A stretch of DNA of 64,000 bases from a virus: positions 1-64,000 of IMG/VR virus record IMGVR_UViG_3300045125_000085. One strand, written 5' to 3'. Below, piece after piece: positions 5,135 to 54,221 of this stretch. How positions within the stretch are numbered: position 1 is the first letter of the stretch; each line of letters begins with the position of its first letter. The notes beneath the pieces were generated by a model. The model searched no databases. It worked only from the letters and a program-made list of their open reading frames with translations, and was not told where the DNA came from. Position numbers and translations under genes: made by a program.

Positions 5135-5168
5135 CAAAAAAAGAGCACCGACTAGGGTGCTCTTTTTG
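5135..5168 (-). terminator. Intrinsic terminator (AGAGCACC stem with T-tract)
   Basis: AAAAAAAGAGCACC-GACTA-GGGTGCTCTTTTT; related copies near 6238 and 41776. Confidence 0.75.
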
Positions 5169-5486: not shown

Positions 5487-5546
5487 GATCTCAGCAGTAG
5501 GCTAAGATCATCTTTACTATATGTGTTTATAAAAATCTGCACTTTA
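5487..5546 (-). promoter_or_regulatory. Early promoter plus conserved 5' leader hairpin
   Basis: CATATAGTAAAGATGAT. The 25 bp GATCTCAGCAGTAGGCTAAGATCAT is identical to 42266-42290. Confidence 0.75.
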
Positions 5547-6148: not shown

Positions 6149-6301
6149 GACATCACCACTTATACTGAATATACAGAAACGATCATAGCTCACACCATGA
6201 TCATCCGTAGTATGTGGGATCTAGTACATCTGCAATGAAAAAAAAGAGCACCCACTAGGAGTGCTCTGTAAAGGCATCGAGCTCCAGCGAGGTAGTGATC
6301 T

Positions 6302-23071: not shown

Positions 23072-24966
23072 TTAGTACCGGCTATATCCACTATAGTACC
23101 CACGATTCGTAGTCTGGTAACCGAGGTTATGAGACAAGAAGGATTGTCCTGCACCCATGCCCGGTGCCAGCAGACCCTGACCGACGAAGTCAGCCACACC
23201 ACGCTGCTGATTAAAGTCAGCAGTAGCAGGTGCTTGGATGTTGCAGACCAGACCAGCGTCTACACATCCTCGCACCAAGGCATCCATAAAGTCCTTGCTG
23301 AAGGTCACACGCTGAGCGAAACCCAGTGTAGATCGCATTGTTATGCGTCAGACCATCGATCAAAGCTTTACGATCAGCCAGTCTGATTTCCAGCGGTACA
23401 TCCTTGCGTAAGAATGTATCCGACCAAGCTCTGATGCGAGTAGGATCTTTATCGCCGATGAAGTTAGCGACAGCGAGGTAATCGATAGCCCGGATGTCAC
23501 GCTTCATACCGTTCTTATCCATGTAGTAGCCCAAATGGACCCTATTGAACGGATTGATAAAGACTGGCTTATCCGCCGTGAAGTAACGGCTGAAGTTGCC
23601 ATTGGTCAGATCGTTAGCTGCACGCAGCAGCAGATCCAGCGCATGCTTATTACCGACCGAAGCTTCCTTGAATATGCTGAGATACCAGGTCTGGGATGCG
23701 CATTCCGGTACGTCCATCGAGATCAGCAGTTCCGGTCTATACAGACTAGAGATCAGCTGACCCAACTGTTGCAACTGGAAGCTATCCGACTTAGTGTCGA
23801 TCCGCTGACCGAAGCCAGATTGGTTATTCTCCAGAGTTGGCATCAATATTCAACGCACCGATGTCGTGCAAATCTACACCTTCCGTGTTCGGCGTCATTC
23901 TAAACGCCTGTACCCAGTTATTATCGTCACGAATGGCGATAGATGTAGCCAACCATAACAAAGTCATAGCTGGGGTATAACCGTAGTAGCTGATAATATC
24001 AGTCACTACTAAGTTAGCTACATACCGTTGTGTCGGCATGGCGTACTGCTGCGGTTGATAGAAGTTGTACGCGGTCACTGGTGCAACTGGTGCATACAAC
24101 GTATCGATGAAACCAGACAGTACTGAGATACGTGCTTCCCGCGATCCCATGTTCATCTGGTTAGCTGCTTGCTGCGCCTGATCCTGACGCATCTTTGAGC
24201 TAAATGCTACCAATACGTCTGAACGTATCGGCTCACCGACTACACCAGTCAGATCCTGGCGTGCGAACTGTACGGTGCATGTGAGGTCTGCACCTTTATC
24301 CGCCATACCCAGGTTAAAGTCCTGAAAGCCAGGCTTACGTACTTCAATTTCCATATTAGAAGCGGTAGTGGCATTCAGGGCCAAGTTTTTGACACCGGCT
24401 TTATCCTCAGGGTTAAAGGAAGCTGGTACAACGCAGCCATCGGTCATGATCAATGTACCGACAGGGTATTGTTGCCGGACGCGTTCTTTGACACGCTTAA
24501 GCAGTTCATCATTCATGGCGTCGCCAGTGACGCGCATGATTTCTACCTGATTCCTACCAGGCATGGACTGCCAGATAGGTGCCGGTTTTTCACCAGTCGC
24601 TTCGATGATGAGGGTGTGATAGCCTATACCCAGATCACCGAAAGTCTTACTACGCACACATACTACTAAGCAAGAGTAGTTCAGCGCAGTGTATACTGTG
24701 TTGTCCACAGCCAAGATAGCTATTTCACTATCCTTCATCTGTGGATCTTTGCAAGCCTCTACTAAAGCTTGTTCCAGTTTGTTGAGGTACTCAGACCCCA
24801 TGCCCGGTGCGATCGGTGCACCGAACAATGCAGCACCGTGGAAGCTCCACATCGGCATTTGTTGTCTGGGTGGTTCAGGCTGCTGCGATGCCATCTGTGG
24901 CTGTTGAAAGCCAGTAGGTGCATTGGCGGCAGGGGTAGGGCGGATGTTTTCGTCTTTAATGGCCAT
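23072..24966 (-). CDS. chmA: Chimallin, major phage nuclear shell protein; frameshifted
   Basis: About 630 codons directly upstream of beta'-N. DIGALN, RVHLGYY-D--G--RDIR-IDYLA, ARRVTF-like region and QRG tail. Confidence 0.88.
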
Positions 24967-35426: not shown

Positions 35427-36404
35427 TTACAAGATTAGGCCGTGCTCATTCAGCTCTTCATCGAGCTGGATGCGTTTGGTCACAGCACTGGTGACGTGCT
35501 CATCTATATCCTTGATGACCTTGGTCAAGCGTTCCAGTACGGATGGGAAGTATCCTGCTACTGTCACGATGTGGAGTGGCAGATCGACAGTGATAGCATC
35601 CTTGAGCTTATCATCGATATAACCAGTAGCTCTGTAACCGACTGGGATGCCGATGGATGCATCAGTTTGAGCGTCTGAGATCGACACAGCGGAGACTACG
35701 CTATGACCACGTGCTAACTCTACCGTCTTGGAGTAAAACTCCAGGTGGGTCAGCTGAGGATCTACAGCCGTCACTTTCTGATAGTTCAGGAAGTTAGACA
35801 GATCTGCACTATCCAACTCGTGATTCTGACCACTAAAGATAGCAGCCAGCAGTACGATGATGGTCTGGACCTTCTGGTCTACAGACCCTCTAGGAGTAGA
35901 GCTACTATTTTCATAGTAGACCATATTCACCGGCTTTTCGATCTTACGGGCAGTAGCCTCATAGCCCTTCAACGTCTTCGAGGTATTCTCTACCTCGATA
36001 CGACTATCAGTACTACCGATCGTAATGACGATAGTCTGCACATCCTTCTTCAGCAACTCACCTGCTATGATCGGTCCGATGACTGAGCCTGAGCCACCTG
36101 ATGCTGAATGTACAATTACATTCAAGTCACCAGGCTTATAGCGGTGTAAGATTTCCTTAGAGCGTTCAGCGATCGCACCTGCATTGCTGTCACGCTTCTT
36201 ACCACTACCGTCTCTATCTTCGATGAGGTATACTCGCTCATCGTTGATATCCAAGTTAGCCCGCTTAAAGTTACTAGCGGATGTATCTATAAAGACGGGT
36301 CTAAATGTAGCAAACCCGTCCGACGGTTTATCCGCATGCCGCATGAGCTGGCTGACGATGTTGATGCCTGCACCACCGGCTGCGTAAATATTCATTTGGT
36401 TCAT
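35427..36404 (-). CDS. phuZ: PhuZ phage tubulin
   Basis: GGAGIN, IDTS-SN, GSGK-R, SGGSGS tubulin signature loop, ELD-AD; acidic C-terminal tail. Confidence 0.95.
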   Translation of the reverse strand: MNQMNIYAAGGAGINIVSQLMRHADKPSDGFATFRPVFIDTSASNFKRANLDINDERVYLIEDRDGSGKKRDSNAGAIAERSKEILHRYKPGDLNVIVHSASGGSGSVIGPIIAGELLKKDVQTIVITIGSTDSRIEVENTSKTLKGYEATARKIEKPVNMVYYENSSSTPRGSVDQKVQTIIVLLAAIFSGQNHELDSADLSNFLNYQKVTAVDPQLTHLEFYSKTVELARGHSVVSAVSISDAQTDASIGIPVGYRATGYIDDKLKDAITVDLPLHIVTVAGYFPSVLERLTKVIKDIDEHVTSAVTKRIQLDEELNEHGLIL

Positions 36405-37679: not shown

Positions 37680-38320
37680 TATTAGTGATTATTACAAAGT
37701 TACTATCGGCTACATTAGCTTCGTATTGAAAGAGTACGTAGGCTAAGATCACCACTAGTATTTATAACTATAATTAACTCCACTATAAGCTCTATCTAAT
37801 CTTTGCCTAGCACTCGCACTATCGTGCTCATGCACTGCGGCGATAGCTCTCTAGCTTTATTTAATCTCTATTGCACTCGACTACGTCTCATGCGCTGCGT
37901 TAATTGCTAATTTAACATTATCTACTAGCTTGTGTAAAAAATACTGGCACTACATATATTTTGACTGACTTAAATAGCAGGAGGGCGATGGAGTGACTGA
38001 ATAGGAACGAAGGAGACCGACACATACCTGGAAGCAATAGAGCTGCGTGCATATAGCTGACTGCCTACCTATACTAAAAGAAAAGAATAGATAAGCAATC
38101 TAGCCTCATACATACTAGCACTATCCACTACCAAACTAACAATAGATTAGGTACTATAGCTATCTGTTATACTACTCTATCTAGCACTACAGATGCGAAG
38201 CAGTATAAGTATTGGGGGCGTAGCCCCCACTAGTAGTACGATAAAAAAATAGATAAACTATATATCTTTATTAATAAAGATATATTCCTTTAAAGTAAAA
38301 ATAGCTAAGGAGCTAGAGAG
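37680..38320. other. Long non-coding region, candidate replication origin
   Basis: No ORF; direct repeat, GNA mini-hairpins, perfect 26-bp AT palindrome and a local GC-skew switch. Confidence 0.4.
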
Positions 38321-40115: not shown

Positions 40116-40550
40116 ATGAAGACGGCGATAGAGTTGAGTGAGTTGAATTATGAGTCTTGGTGTGGTACTAGATGGTTATGCTTGAAAGAGTGTAAGAGCT
40201 TGAGTACGGAGCGGTTGTTGTGGTTGTTGGGATTGATGAAGGATGGCGATGTGGAGATCGTGATACCTAGTCATTGCGTATGGGGTACACAGATAGAGAT
40301 AAGACGATGGTTAAGGAGAGAATACTACCTGATGGCTAAGCGGCATAGCGTAGTAGAATTAGTACATTTACACCATACTACCGAGACTGCTATGGGGGAT
40401 GGGATACCTGTGCTGATGGGAGAGACTCATGATGAGTGGGATGAGGTGCTGATGGCGTGGGCGAGTCATATCGCTCGTAAGGTGAAGTTTATAATCATGG
40501 TGAGGCGTGTATGTCGAGAGTCTACCGGATGCGAGTGCCAGATAGGGTGA
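40116..40550 (+). CDS. Hypothetical protein
   Basis: Intact ORF within the operon. Confidence 0.45.
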   Translation: MKTAIELSELNYESWCGTRWLCLKECKSLSTERLLWLLGLMKDGDVEIVIPSHCVWGTQIEIRRWLRREYYLMAKRHSVVELVHLHHTTETAMGDGIPVLMGETHDEWDEVLMAWASHIARKVKFIIMVRRVCRESTGCECQIG

Positions 40551-41233
40551 TACCTCTTGTAGATGAGGTAGAGGTCGCATTAGAGGCCGATCAGTACGGG
40601 TTAAAGGATAATTACCTCTACCACTACAGCTTAGAGAAATACGAGTGTCTATTGACCTTAGAGGAGCAATGGAATCGAAAGATCAAAGTGCCTACTAAGG
40701 AAGACTTAGATTACAATACACAGCGTAAAGTCTTTCGGTATGATGAATTTCCGTATAGTCAGCACTTGAGTTTTCTATTAGATCCATTACCAGTAGACAT
40801 TATTGCTAAATTTAAAGGTGGTAATAATAAGCTGTATAATGCTAAGTCGTGTTGGGAGTACAAAATAGATATAGCTGCTTTTAAGGATAATATCAACTAC
40901 TACATGCTAGCTGAGAATGATGTAAATAATTTCTTTGCTTATAATCTTTGGTTAGATGTAGAGTTTCCTGGTAAGCACTTTATGTACTTTAAGACTAGAG
41001 ACTTAATTAATAAGCTAGCTGGTAATATCGGCTACGATTACTTGAGTCTTAGGAGTGCAGTGTTTAAATATAAAGGTAGGACACGTGAGGCTTTTAAGGA
41101 GCTGACTGAGAGCGATGAGTTTGAGTGGGTGAAGACGAAAGGCATGTATGCACCGACGGTACCGCATCTAATGGCGTATCCTAAGATCGGTGTGATCGAG
41201 TATGCTGATGTGAAAAAAATAAAGCTACTGTGA
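40511..41233 (+). CDS. Hypothetical phage protein (possible head protein with ALE propeptide)
   Basis: VALE near the N-terminus; LYHYS...HLSF...YA--VPH. Confidence 0.55.
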   Translation: MSRVYRMRVPDRVIPLVDEVEVALEADQYGLKDNYLYHYSLEKYECLLTLEEQWNRKIKVPTKEDLDYNTQRKVFRYDEFPYSQHLSFLLDPLPVDIIAKFKGGNNKLYNAKSCWEYKIDIAAFKDNINYYMLAENDVNNFFAYNLWLDVEFPGKHFMYFKTRDLINKLAGNIGYDYLSLRSAVFKYKGRTREAFKELTESDEFEWVKTKGMYAPTVPHLMAYPKIGVIEYADVKKIKLL

Positions 41234-41293: not shown

Positions 41294-41674
41294 TCAAACC
41301 ACATGTCTATTTCTGTTACTGGTGTCAGCTACTTCATTATCTTCACCGAGATCTTCTATCTGGCAAGCTAAGATCCAGAAGCTCGTCAGATCCTCAGGTA
41401 GTCTAGGATCGTTAGGTACAGCATAACTGTAGAGATTATTGCTAGTCATCCCTACTGTGAACTGAAAGTCATCAGCGACCTCTATGCAGTCGTGGCTGTC
41501 GATGAGCTTGACGAGCACATCAGGACGAGCCTTGATGTGAGCTTTATGGACGCGCTTAATAGCATCCTCACTGTTACAGATCATCGCCTTTTTGCTTTGG
41601 TTTTGCTTGATGTGATAATCAGCATTAACATTGAAGCTAAGACCCAGAATGATAAAAGCGAATAAAGTGCGCAT
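41294..41674 (-). CDS. Secreted/periplasmic hypothetical protein
   Basis: Signal peptide MRTLFAFIILGLSFNVNA; AGGAG RBS. Confidence 0.6.
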   Translation of the reverse strand: MRTLFAFIILGLSFNVNADYHIKQNQSKKAMICNSEDAIKRVHKAHIKARPDVLVKLIDSHDCIEVADDFQFTVGMTSNNLYSYAVPNDPRLPEDLTSFWILACQIEDLGEDNEVADTSNRNRHVV

Positions 41675-41847
41675 ATGTGTTTCTCCTAATTAGAGAGTTG
41701 TTGATAAAGGTACTAGACGGCTAGGTCCAAACACAATATATAGGCTTCTATTATCCTATGGATTTAAGCAGTAGAGAAAAAAGAGCACCGGTGAGGGTGC
41801 TCTTTGAAGGGAGCTTCATGCTCCAGCGAAGGTAACGCTATGAAAAA

Positions 41848-42195
41848 CTATTTACTGGTTGTTACCAGGATGAAGCGGAACTCTGCGCCTTCCGGCAGTA
41901 CTGTGGTGCCCTCAGGAAGACGTGGCCCATTGTACTGGGCCACCAGGAGGATATCGTCATGTTCCAGCTTGATGTTGACCCGATTGCTCGGGATATTTGC
42001 ACCAAGCAGATTGCTCAAGATGACCGCAGTGTCGGGATGACCGACACCGCTAACGAAGCGACCATCTGCGATCTCTGCACCAACGATGCTAGCTGCATCG
42101 CTAGCATCGATGTCGCGGTACGACAGTGTACCGCCATCAAAGCTAGCAGAGATCATGGAGAAGGAAAATGCGTTGGCGATGTAGAACTTGCTCAT
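41848..42195 (-). CDS. acrIII-1: AcrIII-1 family (DUF1874/STIV B116/YddF-like) cA4 ring nuclease
   Basis: Y-ANAFS--M, S-VGH-DTA (catalytic His), NRV-IKL, Q---RLPEG motifs; 115 aa; GGAGG RBS. Confidence 0.88.
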   Translation of the reverse strand: MSKFYIANAFSFSMISASFDGGTLSYRDIDASDAASIVGAEIADGRFVSGVGHPDTAVILSNLLGANIPSNRVNIKLEHDDILLVAQYNGPRLPEGTTVLPEGAEFRFILVTTSK

Positions 42196-42265
42196 AGTTA
42201 CCTCCAAAGGGTAAAAGCTAAGCTATGTAGATAGAGCATATCCACATAGCTGGAAAGGGTGTAGT

Positions 42266-42302
42266 GATCTCAGCAGTAGGCTAAGATCATAAGTAATATG
42301 TA
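42266..42302 (-). promoter_or_regulatory. Early promoter plus conserved leader hairpin of the acr cassette
   Basis: TACATATTACTTATGAT; 25 bp identical to 5487-5511. Confidence 0.7.
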
Positions 42303-42374
42303 TAGCTATATTTCTTTTCAATCCAAGTTTAAAGCTATACGGCATATCGGGCAGAATGATCTGCCCGATAGTAG

Positions 42375-42641
42375 TTAATCACCTGAGTTTTCTTCATCCT
42401 GCTTTTTCAGCTCTGCATCTGTCAGTCGCTTATAGGCAGGTAGAGGTGCTCTGTACAGGAGCGCTATTGCGGTCAAGGTAACCGCCGTGGTAGGAGTAAG
42501 GTCGACCATGCTGTACGTCATGACCCAAAAGTTATGCCCAGGTACATCTCTACCATTGACAGTCTGGATCGCATAAGCATATTCGCTTATTAGCAGCCAG
42601 TACTCTGAAGGTACCTTTATTGCTAGTCTGTCCACAGACAC
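42375..42641 (-). CDS. Small hypothetical protein
   Basis: ORF followed by a hairpin. Confidence 0.35.
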   Translation of the reverse strand: MSVDRLAIKVPSEYWLLISEYAYAIQTVNGRDVPGHNFWVMTYSMVDLTPTTAVTLTAIALLYRAPLPAYKRLTDAELKKQDEENSGD

Positions 42642-42650
42642 CTGAATCTA

Positions 42651-42833
42651 TCAGTCGTTTAATACGCTAGTACATCTACCTTTTAGCATAGTAGACGAGT
42701 TGTGATACTGATTGCTCAGTACTACAGACTGTGGTGGTTTTTGTTTCCGTATCGTTACGGCGTCTGAAGCCATAATCAGCATCAGCAGTAGAGTCAATGT
42801 GTGACGAGTAGAAAAGAGTATCATTGCGCGCAT
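42651..42833 (-). CDS. Small hypothetical membrane-anchored protein
   Basis: GAGG RBS; hydrophobic N-terminus. Confidence 0.35.
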   Translation of the reverse strand: MRAMILFSTRHTLTLLLMLIMASDAVTIRKQKPPQSVVLSNQYHNSSTMLKGRCTSVLND

Positions 42834-42949
42834 AAGAGTACCTCTAAAAGTAAAATGAGTAAAACGAAAGCTATCTTACCATTACTTCACTTTGTGAAAA
42901 AATATAGAAGACATGCTATAGCCGATTACTAAATCACAGAGAGACTGTT

Positions 42950-45173
42950 ATGACGATACTGTTTTTAAACGACTGGAAAAACTACCCAAACGCTATCGTA
43001 GATACTGAGACGAAGAACTCTAGCTTTATACGGTATAGTGCACTACCCGCGAGATGGGCGTCAAGAACCATGCTTTTCCTTTGCAGCTACATAACCCTAG
43101 CTTACAAGGTATAGATCCATTTAGCCTACAGTTGACGATACAGCAGATGGCTGATATAGCCATAGAGTGTAAACGTAACTTCTTCTACTACGCTAGAGAG
43201 ATCATTCGAGTACCACCACCTTCAGGACCAGGCGTGACGTACCTAGCTGCTAATCGTGGTAATATCGCTTTATTCTGGTTGTTCTTAAACCATGTGACGA
43301 CTATACTCATACAGCCACGACAGACTGGGTAAGTCTGTATCTACAGATGCGCTACAAGTCTATCTACTGAACCTACGCTGTCAAAACACTACGATCAATT
43401 TGCTGACTAAAGATGATGATCTACGTAGCCGTAACTTTGACGCGTATTAAGGATATCTCTAGTGAGCTACCATGGTATCTACAGCTACGCTCTAAGAAAG
43501 ATATCGCTAATACGGAAGAGATCACTATTAAGACTTTGAATAACCGCTATAAAGGACACTCTACCGCATCAGTCACCTAAACAAGCCTTAAACGTAGTGT
43601 AGAGGTCTGACGAGTCCTGTCTTCCACATAGACGAGTTTGCTTTTCTGTACAATATCGAAATCATGCTACCTGCTGCATTAGCAGGTGGTGGTGCTGCTA
43701 GAGACGTAGCAGCTGAGCGAGGTGAGCCGTATGGTACTATCTATACGACGACTGCAGGTAAGAAGAACGATAGAGATGGTAAGTATGCGTATCAGATCAC
43801 TACCTGCTCAGCTGTCTGGAGTGAGAGATTCTTAGACGTAGCGGATCCTACTGACTTTAGAGCATGTGAATACGAAGATCAGCACCTAAAGGCGAGTATC
43901 GTGTCAACTGTACTTTCAGTCATAGACAACTAGGCTATAGTGATCATTGGCTCAAACGTAAGCTAGAAGATACTAATGCTACTGGTGATGATGCTAATCG
44001 TGACTTCTTCAACGTATGGACGTCAGGTACGCAGTCTATGCCCTTACCGACTTACCTCATGGAGCGTATCCATCAGTCACGTCAGTTAGATAATCATGCT
44101 GAGATCACTAGACCATACGGCTACATTACGCGCTGGTATATACCTGAAGCTACTATTAAAACGACTATGCAGGAATACAGTACGCTGATGGGGCTAGATA
44201 CTAGTGACGCCGTAGGTAGAGATGACATAGGTATGGTCATAAGGCATGTAGTCACCGGTGAGATACTCGCTGCTGGTAATTACAATGAGACTAACCTCAT
44301 CACCTTTGCTGAATGGATAGCACTGATGTTAGAGCAGTATCCGAAGATGACATTGATCATAGAGCGTAGATCATCCGGTGCAGCTATCTTAGACTACGTG
44401 ATACTCATGCTAGTCAATAAAGGCATAGATCCATTTAAACGTATCTACAATAAAGCCGTACAGGATGCCGATGAAGTACCGGAACGCTTTAAAGAACTCC
44501 AGCGTCCGTTTCATATACGTCATCAGGAAGTATATGTCAAGTATCGTAAGCTGTTTGGCTTCGCTACCTCAGGTACAGGGACTACGAGTCGTACTGAGCT
44601 CTATACGACGACATTACTAGCAGCTGCTAAGAATACAGGCGATAGAGTCAAAGATCCAGTGCTAGTCGATCAGAATACTAGGACTCACTACCAAGAACGG
44701 TAGGATAGACCATGCCGATGGTGAGCATGACGATGTCTGTATCGCATGGCTGTTGACGTACTGGTTATTGAGCAATGGCAAGCACATGGACTTCTATGGC
44801 ATCAATAGCCGTGAGATCTTAAGAGAGATCAAGCAACAAGATCCTGATCAGAAACCAGAGTATGTCTATCAGCGTAGATTACAACTACAGATACGTCAGC
44901 GTATAGAACAACTCACTGAGCAGATCAAGAATGAGCATGATGAGTATGTGGTGCATAAGCTAGAACGTGAACTAATGGGCTTAGGACATACAGATCGTAC
45001 TGGATGACGGTGAGACCTTTAGTATCGATACTCTGCTGAATGAGCTAAGGCTTACAGAAACAATCTAAGAGTCAGCAGCAGCGCAGCATGGCGTTAGGTA
45101 GACAGAACCCATATGGCGGTGGCACTGGATACTTCATAAGCAGCCTATGCAGCAAGGCAATCGTTACTGGTAA
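42950..45173 (+). CDS. terL: Terminase large subunit (phiKZ gp25-like); frameshifted
   Basis: MTILFLNDW..., ANRGN, PRQTGKS Walker A, IDE Walker B, TTTAG, GLDTSDA nuclease motif, DH--G-HDD. Confidence 0.9.
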
Positions 45174-52139: not shown

Positions 52140-54221
52140 ATGGCATCTATATATCTCATCAATGCCGCACCCATGGTGCAGCAACTGGGTACTCGGGATT
52201 TGAGTACCGTCCAGGTCCCACGTGAGCCCGAACAATATGCGCAGCATTTACCGAAATGCTTTCTGTTTGCCCAATCAGGACCGTTGACGCCTCAACTCGT
52301 ATCCGGTGCTGAAGCAGAACGCATGTACGGTACCAAGACGTTTGATCTGCGTAGCAAATTCGCTACTCATCAAACCGTCTTTACCAAGCTCATGTTTGCA
52401 GAAGATAACAACGTCATGGTCCAACGTGTCATCTCTGATGATGCGGGTCCTGAAGCGAATGTTTTGCTGTCCTTAGACGTACTGCCGACTAAAGTCGATT
52501 TGTACGAACGTGATCCGTCTGGCTTGATCAAGCTGGATGCGATGGGTGCACCGATTAAGAAAGGGACTGCAGATGGCTTTAAAGTCATGTGGGTCACTAG
52601 CCATATCAGCAATAAAGCTAATATCGGTAACTTCGGTCAAGCCGCAGTAGTCGCTGGCTCACAGACTGATCCAGTCTCAGGTGCTCAGTCACAGCGCTAT
52701 CCTATCTTTGAATTTAAAGCTTCATTCTTAGGTGAATCTGGCAATGACGGTGGTCTGCGTATCTGGGCTCCTACGCTCGATACTGAAGCCAATATGCCGA
52801 CTGCCATGATGGCTAAGGAACGTGCTTATCCTTATTATGTCAGTATGATCCGTAGGCCGGATTCGTCCAGCTCACCGAAAGTCGTGCAGACCCAGATGGG
52901 TGATCAGTACGTCTCAGTAGTGCTGAAAGAAGGCGTGATCGATCCGATTACTGATCGTGAAATGTTCATGGGCGATATCCTGCTGAACAACTATCAGAAC
53001 GTCACTGATCCTGCTTATCCGAAAGTATTCGGTGACTTCAGCACGATGGCGATCTATGAAGAAAACCTGGCTGAGCTTGCTGGAACAGTTCCATGCGGCT
53101 GAAACGCCGTATATCGATCTGTTCTCAGACTTCACTAGCGATATTGGCAGACATCCATCTGTTCAACATCATTTCAGGCGTATCTAGCCAGAACGTACCT
53201 TACCATACTTTCCAGTTGGTAGATGGTGCTGGTAGCATTCGTCCGACTCAGTTCTCTAACATCTTTGCAGCTGGTGGCAGCGATGGCACCATCAGCAATG
53301 CCGTGTTAGGTGACTTAGTCAAGAACTACATGCTGGGCTACTTAGATCCGAATAGCGAACTGCAAGAACTGGCTCTGAACATCGAATCCATTATCTACGA
53401 TACTGGCTTCCCGTTACAGACTAAGTATGCCCTGGCTAATATCATCGGTCTGCGTAAAGATACCTTCGTAGTATTGGGTACTTACGATGTCGATGGTCCG
53501 GTCATGACGCAGTCAGAAGAACATTCTGTCGCTGTAGCGCTGCGTACTCGTCTGCAGATGTTCCCTGAATCTGATTACTTCGGTACGCCGGTCATGCGTG
53601 GCATGATCGTAGGTCGCAGTGGTACTTTACGGAATAGCCAGTATAAAGGCAGACTGCCGTTGACGTTTGAAGTAGGTATCAAAGCTGCACGCTACATGGG
53701 TGCTGGTGATGGTCGCTGGAAGAACGGTCGTAACTTTGATGGTGCGCCTGGATCAGTCGTAGAAAACATGACTGATATCTCGATCACTTGGGTGCCGACG
53801 ACTGTACGTAACAAGAATTGGAGCGTAGGTCTGAACTGGGTACAAGCGTTTGATCGTCGTAGCTTCTTCTTCCCTGCGTTGAAGACTGTATACAACGATG
53901 ATATGTCTGTACTGAACAGCTTCATTACGGCTATGGCTATCTGTACTTTGAACAAGGTCACTGCAGCCGCATGGCGTCAGTTCTCTGGCGTATCTGGTAT
54001 CAGCAATGGCTTGTTGATTGATCGCACTAATGCTTTCATTAAGTCACAGACCCAGGGTCGTTTTGATGAGTCGCTTTGTGATTGAACCGGCTGCCTTCTT
54101 CACCGATACCGATGTACTGAATGGCTTTAGCTGGACAGTCCCAGTCAAGATCTATGCTAACAACATGAAGACTGTAATGACTTCTTATGTTGAAGCTTAT
54201 CGTGCCGGTGGTACGGCTTAA
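52140..54221 (+). CDS. Contractile tail sheath protein (phiKZ gp29-like); frameshifted
   Basis: NAAP----G--D-S, QHLP, GGSDGT, YDTGF-L-TK, PES-YFGT, final NNM-TV. Confidence 0.88.

Follow-up and report, generated by a model that had tools for sequence, protein, structure and literature searches.

A putative AcrIII-1 cA4 ring nuclease gene in an accessory cassette of an uncultured nucleus-forming jumbo phage

In the opening 64 kb of an IMG/VR record (this 64-kb stretch is referred to below as the window; the whole record measures 144,006 bp and is ~49% complete according to CheckV), analysis revealed a small gene, here called acrIII-1, whose 115-aa product belongs by its sequence and predicted fold to the AcrIII-1 (DUF1874) family of viral ring nucleases. 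The gene is carried by a divergent chimallivirus, in an expression cassette of its own that is absent from the closest collinear relative found. The best explanation, to which we give a probability of roughly two in three, is that the protein is an active AcrIII-1 cA4 ring nuclease, borne on an accessory early cassette and acting against type III immunity during infection. The gene adds a new member to a known enzyme family, in surroundings suited to what the enzyme does, and its occurrence in a chimallivirus was not found described in the searched literature: in publications consulted on AcrIII-1 or ring nucleases together with jumbo or nucleus-forming phages the terms only co-occur, and no report of a chimallivirus ring-nuclease gene was found among them.

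The open reading frame is intact from end to end, with an ATG at 42195, a TAG at 41850-41848, and a ribosome-binding site, GGAGGT at 42205-42200, placed 4 nt 5' of the start codon. A TTG at 42207 was rejected as the start, since it overlaps the ribosome-binding site and would add residues without a counterpart in the family, whose alignment starts at the ATG. The original prediction had recognised the DUF1874/AcrIII-1 signature motifs in the translation, and all four were found, ANAFS at residues 7-11, GH at 52-53, NR at 71-72 and RLPEG at 92-96, a set that we judge to be far beyond chance. The protein also matched the Pfam family PF08960 (STIV_B116-like, formerly DUF1874) over profile positions 2-88 of 101; its score of 45.4 bits (E-value 9.2e-12) exceeds the curated cut-off of 26. 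A phmmer search of PDB sequences returned AFV3-109 (1.7e-10), STIV B116 (1.9e-8), SIRV1 ORF114 (2x4i; 2e-8) and 6scf (9.5e-7), the last being the AcrIII-1/cA4 complex, and all of these matches are members of the AcrIII-1/DUF1874 family. Among 5.8 billion proteins, 70 homologues besides the query were recovered, the best of them 49-53% identical, and all except one (69/70) have a precomputed PF08960 match. No NCBIfam model matched the protein, and a look-up of contigs encoding an identical protein returned no record for the exact 115-aa sequence.

The predicted structure points the same way. An AlphaFold2 model built on a 24-sequence alignment had a pLDDT of 95.5 and a pTM of 0.88, and its top Foldseek matches were 6scf, 2j85, 2x4i and 2j6b (probability 1.0, TM 0.73-0.83). 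The Crn2 domain of the Csx1-Crn2 protein 8y7f came next, and no unrelated fold scored below an E-value of 0.1 in that search. Profile score, fold and active-site residues agree, identifying the protein as a true member of the AcrIII-1 viral ring-nuclease family and bearing out the DUF1874 membership that had been proposed.

SIRV1 gp29 (6SCF, 2X4I) is a structurally and kinetically defined AcrIII-1, and the protein described here resembles it in fold (TM 0.73), catalytic histidine, six contact residues and an equivalent dimer, with the N-terminal strand and the Q87 region at the modelled interface. The two differ in that gp29 is an archaeal rudivirus protein, is ~33% identical, and has an extra helical insert after its RLEEG loop. 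The founding study describes H47 as the general acid, with a cost of more than 2500-fold for H47A, R85 as a loop "lock", and N8, S11, N13, S49, T50, R66 and Q81 as cA4 contacts (10.1101/778746). When the protein was aligned with gp29 and with its homologue from phage THSA-485A, H53, N8, S11, T56, R72, Q87 and R92 fell opposite gp29 H47, N8, S11, T50, R66, Q81 and R85, and only N13 and S49 of gp29 were found replaced, by S13 and D55, where the THSA-485A protein has Q and D. In the numbering of the protein itself, S49, G52, H53, R72, Q87, R92, L93 and G96 show no variation across 24 homologues, so that the histidine of the GH motif, which the original prediction had taken to be catalytic, is both invariant and the counterpart of the gp29 general acid. 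The retention of nearly all cA4-contact residues suggests that selection has been acting on cA4 chemistry.

A homodimer model scored 0.68 against 0.00 for the best control, with 100% of contacts the same between runs and a partner pLDDT of at least 89; the mark applied to this score is reached by 20 of 30 solved homo-pairs and by 1 of 23 solved single chains. Residues 9-13, 19-28, 85-89 and 107-109 form the interface of the modelled symmetric dimer. Because AcrIII-1 dimers have already been solved, the pass may reflect memory of those structures, and the model is presented as a likeness and not as independent proof. Most likely, the homodimer would bury one cA4 molecule at the dimer interface. 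There the 2'-OH would make an in-line attack, the two His53 residues, one per subunit, would serve as general acids, and cA4 would be cut to A2>P.

The best match among deposited phages is the THSA-485A AcrIII-1 (Tsac_2833, DUF1874), at 45.5% identity over 96% of the protein, which is likewise a stand-alone small phage gene of the same length class with GHxDTA, NRV and RLPEG motifs. This protein abolishes cA4-dependent but not cA6-dependent type III immunity (10.1101/778746). Unlike the virus described here, THSA-485A infects a thermophilic Firmicute, is of temperate type with a genome of 42 kb, and has no phage nucleus; the regulatory context of its gene is unrelated. The DUF1874 fold and, as predicted for the protein here, cA4 ring-nuclease chemistry are also features of Crn2 and the Csx1-Crn2 fusions (for example in Marinitoga; PDB 8Y7F/8Y7G) and of B. 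subtilis YddF. These proteins, however, are cellular or ICE-borne, serve to regulate the type III response of the host itself, and in some cases are fused to the very effector they inactivate, whereas the gene here is viral, stands alone, and has no CRISPR gene adjacent to it.

Several genes in the window identify the virus. Encoded there are the PhuZ tubulin and the nuclear shell protein chimallin (Table 1), as well as a phiKZ-type DNA polymerase (phrog_2927, 6e-213), and the presence of PhuZ and the shell protein in the same stretch agrees with the nucleus-forming jumbo phage setting given in the original prediction. No deposited phage has a PhuZ or a polymerase more than 41% identical to these, which, together with the chimallin gene, marks the contig as a deep-branching uncultured chimallivirus. 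The two chimallin ORFs cover phrog_4795 positions 107-417 and 423-601, with a frame change near 23830; in the collinear relative G062, introduced below, chimallin is an open frame of 633 aa. The tail sheath gene, 52140-54085 on the + strand, is split at 53093-53102 into halves that match consecutive parts of the PHROG profile, and the large terminase gene shows at least six frame changes and no inserted DNA relative to residues 23-728 of the G062 TerL, as would be seen with assembly indels or in a degenerate gene. The broken frames of terminase, chimallin and sheath point to indel errors, and possibly to a defective genome. No Rfam families and no tRNAs were found in the window.

Table 1. Positions, in the 64-kb window, of the acrIII-1 cassette, its neighbours and the genes diagnostic of a chimallivirus.
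Feature	Coordinates	Strand	Evidence or remark
acrIII-1-like CDS, DUF1874/STIV_B116-like, putative cA4 ring nuclease	41848..42195	-	Pfam, AlphaFold2, Foldseek, SIRV1 gp29 alignment
Promoter-like AT-rich motif, TATAGCTATACATATTACTT preceded by TTGGATTGAAAAG	42291..42326	-	PWM and anchor scans
95-nt 5' leader	42196..42290	-	fold energy -33.7 kcal/mol, z -5.2; two strong hairpins
Intrinsic terminator, 10-bp GC-rich stem and U run	41780..41805	-	42 nt past stop; z -4.8
~1.2-kb stretch with the cassette, absent in G062	41675..42908		tblastn/blastn synteny
126-aa protein with N-terminal signal-peptide-like segment and own promoter-like site	41294..41674	-	downstream neighbour; 42% in G062
Large terminase gene	42926..45050	+	upstream neighbour, opposite strand; collinear with intact 767-aa G062 TerL
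PhuZ tubulin	35427..36404	-	phrog_4733 9e-86; 89% identical to G062 copy
Chimallin (nuclear shell protein), two overlapping ORFs	23217..24966	-	phrog_4795 1.3e-38 and 1.5e-31

By its sequence features the gene constitutes a self-contained monocistronic cassette, in which a promoter-like motif, a 95-nt leader, a ribosome-binding site and the ORF are followed by a terminator of its own. The leader begins with a 10-bp hairpin (42290-42266) that opens with the invariant 12-mer ATGATCTTAGCC, continues with a pyrimidine-rich spacer (CCCUUUCC), and ends with a 13-bp second hairpin and then the GGAGGT. Exactly eight copies of ATGATCTTAGCC are present in the 144-kb contig, all on the - strand (starting at 143828, 137102, 133151, 117575, 81563, 42290, 5511 and 1978, with variants at 37752 and 37056), and an AT-rich motif, either ...CATATACTAAnn or ...ACATATTACTT in type, stands before every one of them. 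The leader is 92-97 nt long in 6/8 units with a called ORF (37-115 codons, acrIII-1 included), and the start of the acrIII-1 leader is identical over 25 nt with the unit at 5487-5511.

The recurrent unit has a constant order, with the promoter-like motif, the ATGATCTTAGCC 5' hairpin, the U/C-rich spacer, the second hairpin and GGAGGT standing before small ORFs, and the loop of the second hairpin reads CUGCUCRG in five of the eight leader units. None of the cargo proteins of the sister cassettes had a Pfam or PHROG match. A terminator family, D5 (AAAAAAGAGCACC...GGTGCTCTTT), is common to 5137-5165, 6240-6268 and 41777-41805 and ends several cassettes. Sites with a PWM score of at least 14 number 23 on the - strand and 0 on the + strand, and are followed by (A/G)TGA and a hairpin; the same promoter-motif class is also found 5' of chmA (site 25099) and of the transglycosylase-phuZ pair (site 37080).

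In jumbo phages that encode RNA polymerases, the motif that can be detected bioinformatically is the early promoter of the virion RNA polymerase (PMC7598289), and in 201phi2-1 the early motif stands 5' of hypothetical-protein genes (PMC11512511). From this analogy, and because the promoter class of acrIII-1 is common to chmA and the small-gene units, we infer that the cassette would be transcribed early, by the virion RNA polymerase. Timing matters in this case, given that SIRV2 gp37, a close homologue of gp29, shows no Acr activity in native infection owing to its middle/late expression (10.1101/2023.01.10.523387). The same study describes a second role for gp37, which binds and inhibits a crenarchaeal lysine methyltransferase, and finds the anti-defence promoter in front of just 2 of the 24 ring nucleases of crenarchaeal viruses. 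The chimallivirus protein could likewise be an active cA4 ring nuclease that has no Acr role in natural infection, either because it is made too late or because it was selected for another role, such as inhibition of a host protein. This explanation nevertheless seems unlikely, as the promoter and leader module is common to at least seven small-gene units, the promoter class is common to chmA, and the cA4-contact residues are nearly all kept.

The accessory status of the cassette is evident from G062, the closest collinear relative found, a 50-kb IMG/VR fragment whose PhuZ is 89% and whose DNA polymerase is 66% identical to those in the window and which is collinear with it over ~40 kb. By tblastn and blastn synteny, G062 has no acrIII-1 cassette at the corresponding site: the distance from the start of the 126-aa gene or its homologue to the point where terminase nucleotide homology resumes is 75 bp in G062 and 1235 bp in the window. 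Besides the acrIII-1 cassette, the extra ~1.2 kb includes a segment in which two small ORFs were called without support. The acrIII-1 ORF itself is compositionally unusual, with a GC content of 53% and a GC3 of 60%, compared to 46 ± 3% and 47 ± 5% in 87 long ORFs of the genome.

This composition, ~2.7 sd above the genome mean for GC3, together with the frame-broken chimallin, sheath and terminase genes of the contig, might suggest that acrIII-1 is not truly part of the phage, having been joined to it by chimeric assembly, or that it is a decaying passenger without function. Either case is highly improbable, however: the gene is embedded in regulatory sequence found throughout the contig, including the exact 12-nt leader start, the 25 nt in common with 5487-5511 and the common terminator family, its ORF is untruncated and lacks none of the residues that are invariant in the family, and both of its flanks are collinear with G062. 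Phage-typical regulatory DNA around a compositionally odd ORF, between collinear flanks, instead agrees with a native expression slot that has taken up a foreign ORF, and the gene probably arrived by horizontal transfer at a variable site adjoining the terminase gene.

The gene is rare among chimalliviruses. When this protein and the copy from contig G006 were searched with tblastn against 50,697 deposited phage records, no match was obtained in any phiKZ-type record, including those of Pseudomonas, Erwinia, Serratia and Ralstonia phages; the only matches were to archaeal viruses, THSA-485A, a few other non-jumbo phages and, weakly and partially, 173-182-kb cyanophages. PhuZ matches occur in 192 records of the same database, and polymerase matches in 309. 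Among the 50 nearest IMG/VR relatives none had a PF08960 match over the cut-off, including the 15 that are at least 90% complete, while B. subtilis YddF, the positive control of this genome search, was detected. In all, 150 contigs matched this polymerase type; 80 of them were kept, and the 50 were the longest or nearest of these. DNA polymerase was used as the proxy for chimalliviruses because a chimallin alignment gave 5 IMG/VR loci, and 5/5 sampled polymerase contigs were chimallin-positive.

A single-protein search of IMG/VR yielded no close relative of the acrIII-1 protein, and an alignment-based scan was needed; this pattern scan recovered 207 DUF1874 loci. Three of 20 long carrier contigs were chimallin-positive, namely G005 (224 kb, complete), G006 (261 kb) and G017 (110 kb). 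A fourth chimallin-positive contig, G023 (105 kb), encodes a divergent DUF1874 homologue of 118 aa (L178:1426-1782) that is 32% identical to the protein in the window, with a pairwise E-value of 8e-20 and a Pfam score of 19 bits, below the cut-off. Like acrIII-1, the copies in these four contigs are small stand-alone genes that keep the catalytic GH. They are 32-42% identical to it over their full length, with a best local segment of 56% (G006), and they are not syntenic with it, since the flanks that could be compared match genes at 86-99 kb or 126 kb in this genome. In a DUF1874 tree of 72 rows and 114 columns no chimallivirus clade was supported, and the tree is too poorly resolved to distinguish one acquisition from several, so that synteny was used for the comparison of the copies.

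Taken as sequence evidence, these distributions describe acrIII-1 as a rare, sporadic and non-syntenic accessory gene of chimalliviruses, neither core nor a one-off. The original suspicion that it is not a usual chimallivirus gene therefore held, in that it was found in 0 deposited phiKZ-type records and over the cut-off in 0/50 relatives, with the qualification that four other uncultured chimallivirus contigs, and many non-chimallin jumbo contigs, carry DUF1874. The remaining 17 of the 20 long carriers lack chimallin and include jumbo contigs as long as 459 kb. DUF1874 genes are common on such large jumbo and mega-phage contigs, those of 200-459 kb including L019, L020, L031, L033, L055, L072 and L080. 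The nearest cellular DUF1874 genes are at most 47% identical and are scattered among Clostridia, Patescibacteria and others, pointing to no host.

The G023 copy retains GH and RLE.G, but GHxDTA is replaced by GHASSV and NR by EGR, and its substrate may differ. These altered NR and DTA motifs in a chimallivirus homologue raise the question of whether the acrIII-1 product itself might act on another cyclic oligonucleotide, or counter a non-CRISPR signalling defence that is CBASS-like or uses other cOA. Jumbo phages do counter several cyclic-nucleotide defences, phiKZ Tad1 being one example (PMC13282480), and a natural Serratia defence signals through cA3 (10.1101/2022.06.20.496707). We consider this reading quite improbable, however, as the protein in the window keeps the residues of the two-fold cA4 pocket of gp29, and the THSA-485A enzyme, to which it is 45% identical, shows selectivity for cA4 over cA6.

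An active cA4 ring nuclease that serves as an anti-type-III factor remains the preferred reading, and there is a biological logic for it. Type III immunity in Serratia protects against the nucleus-forming phage PCH45, both in its native form with cA3 and NucC and with a swapped-in, cA4-activated TtCsm6 (10.1101/2022.06.20.496707). A 2026 review of jumbo phages states that type III remains effective against them, and the counter-measures it lists are Tad1 and unspecified phosphodiesterases, with no ring nuclease (PMC13282480). In the proposed mechanism, acrIII-1 would likely be transcribed with the other small early genes of the phage and translated in the cytoplasm, where host type III complexes would sense exported phage mRNA and make cA4. 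By removing the cA4, the nuclease would keep Csm6/Csx1, Can1/2, Cam1 and like effectors inactive and so silence the alarm triggered by RNA, with protection of the DNA left to the shell. This two-layer evasion, and the host with a cA4-dependent effector that it implies, had both been suggested at the outset, and are reasonable. On the other hand, just one natural type III defence against a chimallivirus has been studied, and its effector is the cA3-activated NucC, which AcrIII-1 would not be expected to affect, because the THSA-485A homologue left cA6-mediated immunity intact.

Type III systems, which sense mRNA, are an established weak point of nucleus-forming phages, and no counter-measure from these phages was found in the searched literature; a chimallivirus ring nuclease would be a concrete and cheaply testable candidate. 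The genes' rarity, lack of synteny and presence in a cassette suggest a system of accessory anti-defence slots, which may hold other small cargo genes as well. More broadly, nucleus-forming phages might repeatedly and independently acquire AcrIII-1-type nucleases into interchangeable early cassettes, as a response to the CRISPR type that bypasses the shell, a proposal for which we regard the chances as evenly divided. If it is true, type III systems that signal through cA4 would be a major natural pressure on environmental chimalliviruses, and acrIII-1 genes would be the first natural anti-type-III devices of this group. For jumbo-phage therapy and the prediction of host range, phages with acrIII-1 should tolerate hosts with cA4 effectors, and should not tolerate hosts with cA3 and NucC.

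Other features of the region next to the terminase gene were also recorded. The 126-aa neighbour of acrIII-1 and the other adjacent small ORFs had no Pfam or PHROG match. The stretch between the conserved phrog_2921 gene and the terminase gene varies between close relatives: in the window it contains genes of 144 aa and 240 aa (phrog_23338) at 40116-41233 on the + strand, and in G062 (L184:16579-17157) an unrelated 192-aa ORF takes their place. Also in G062, the promoter-like motif of a 130-aa secreted-protein gene (TGGATTGAAAAAG...GCATATACTGTG; L184:17650-17690, - strand) lies inside the first codons of the divergent terminase ORF, and the upstream half of this motif resembles the TTGGATTGAAAAG that is found 5' of acrIII-1 in the window.
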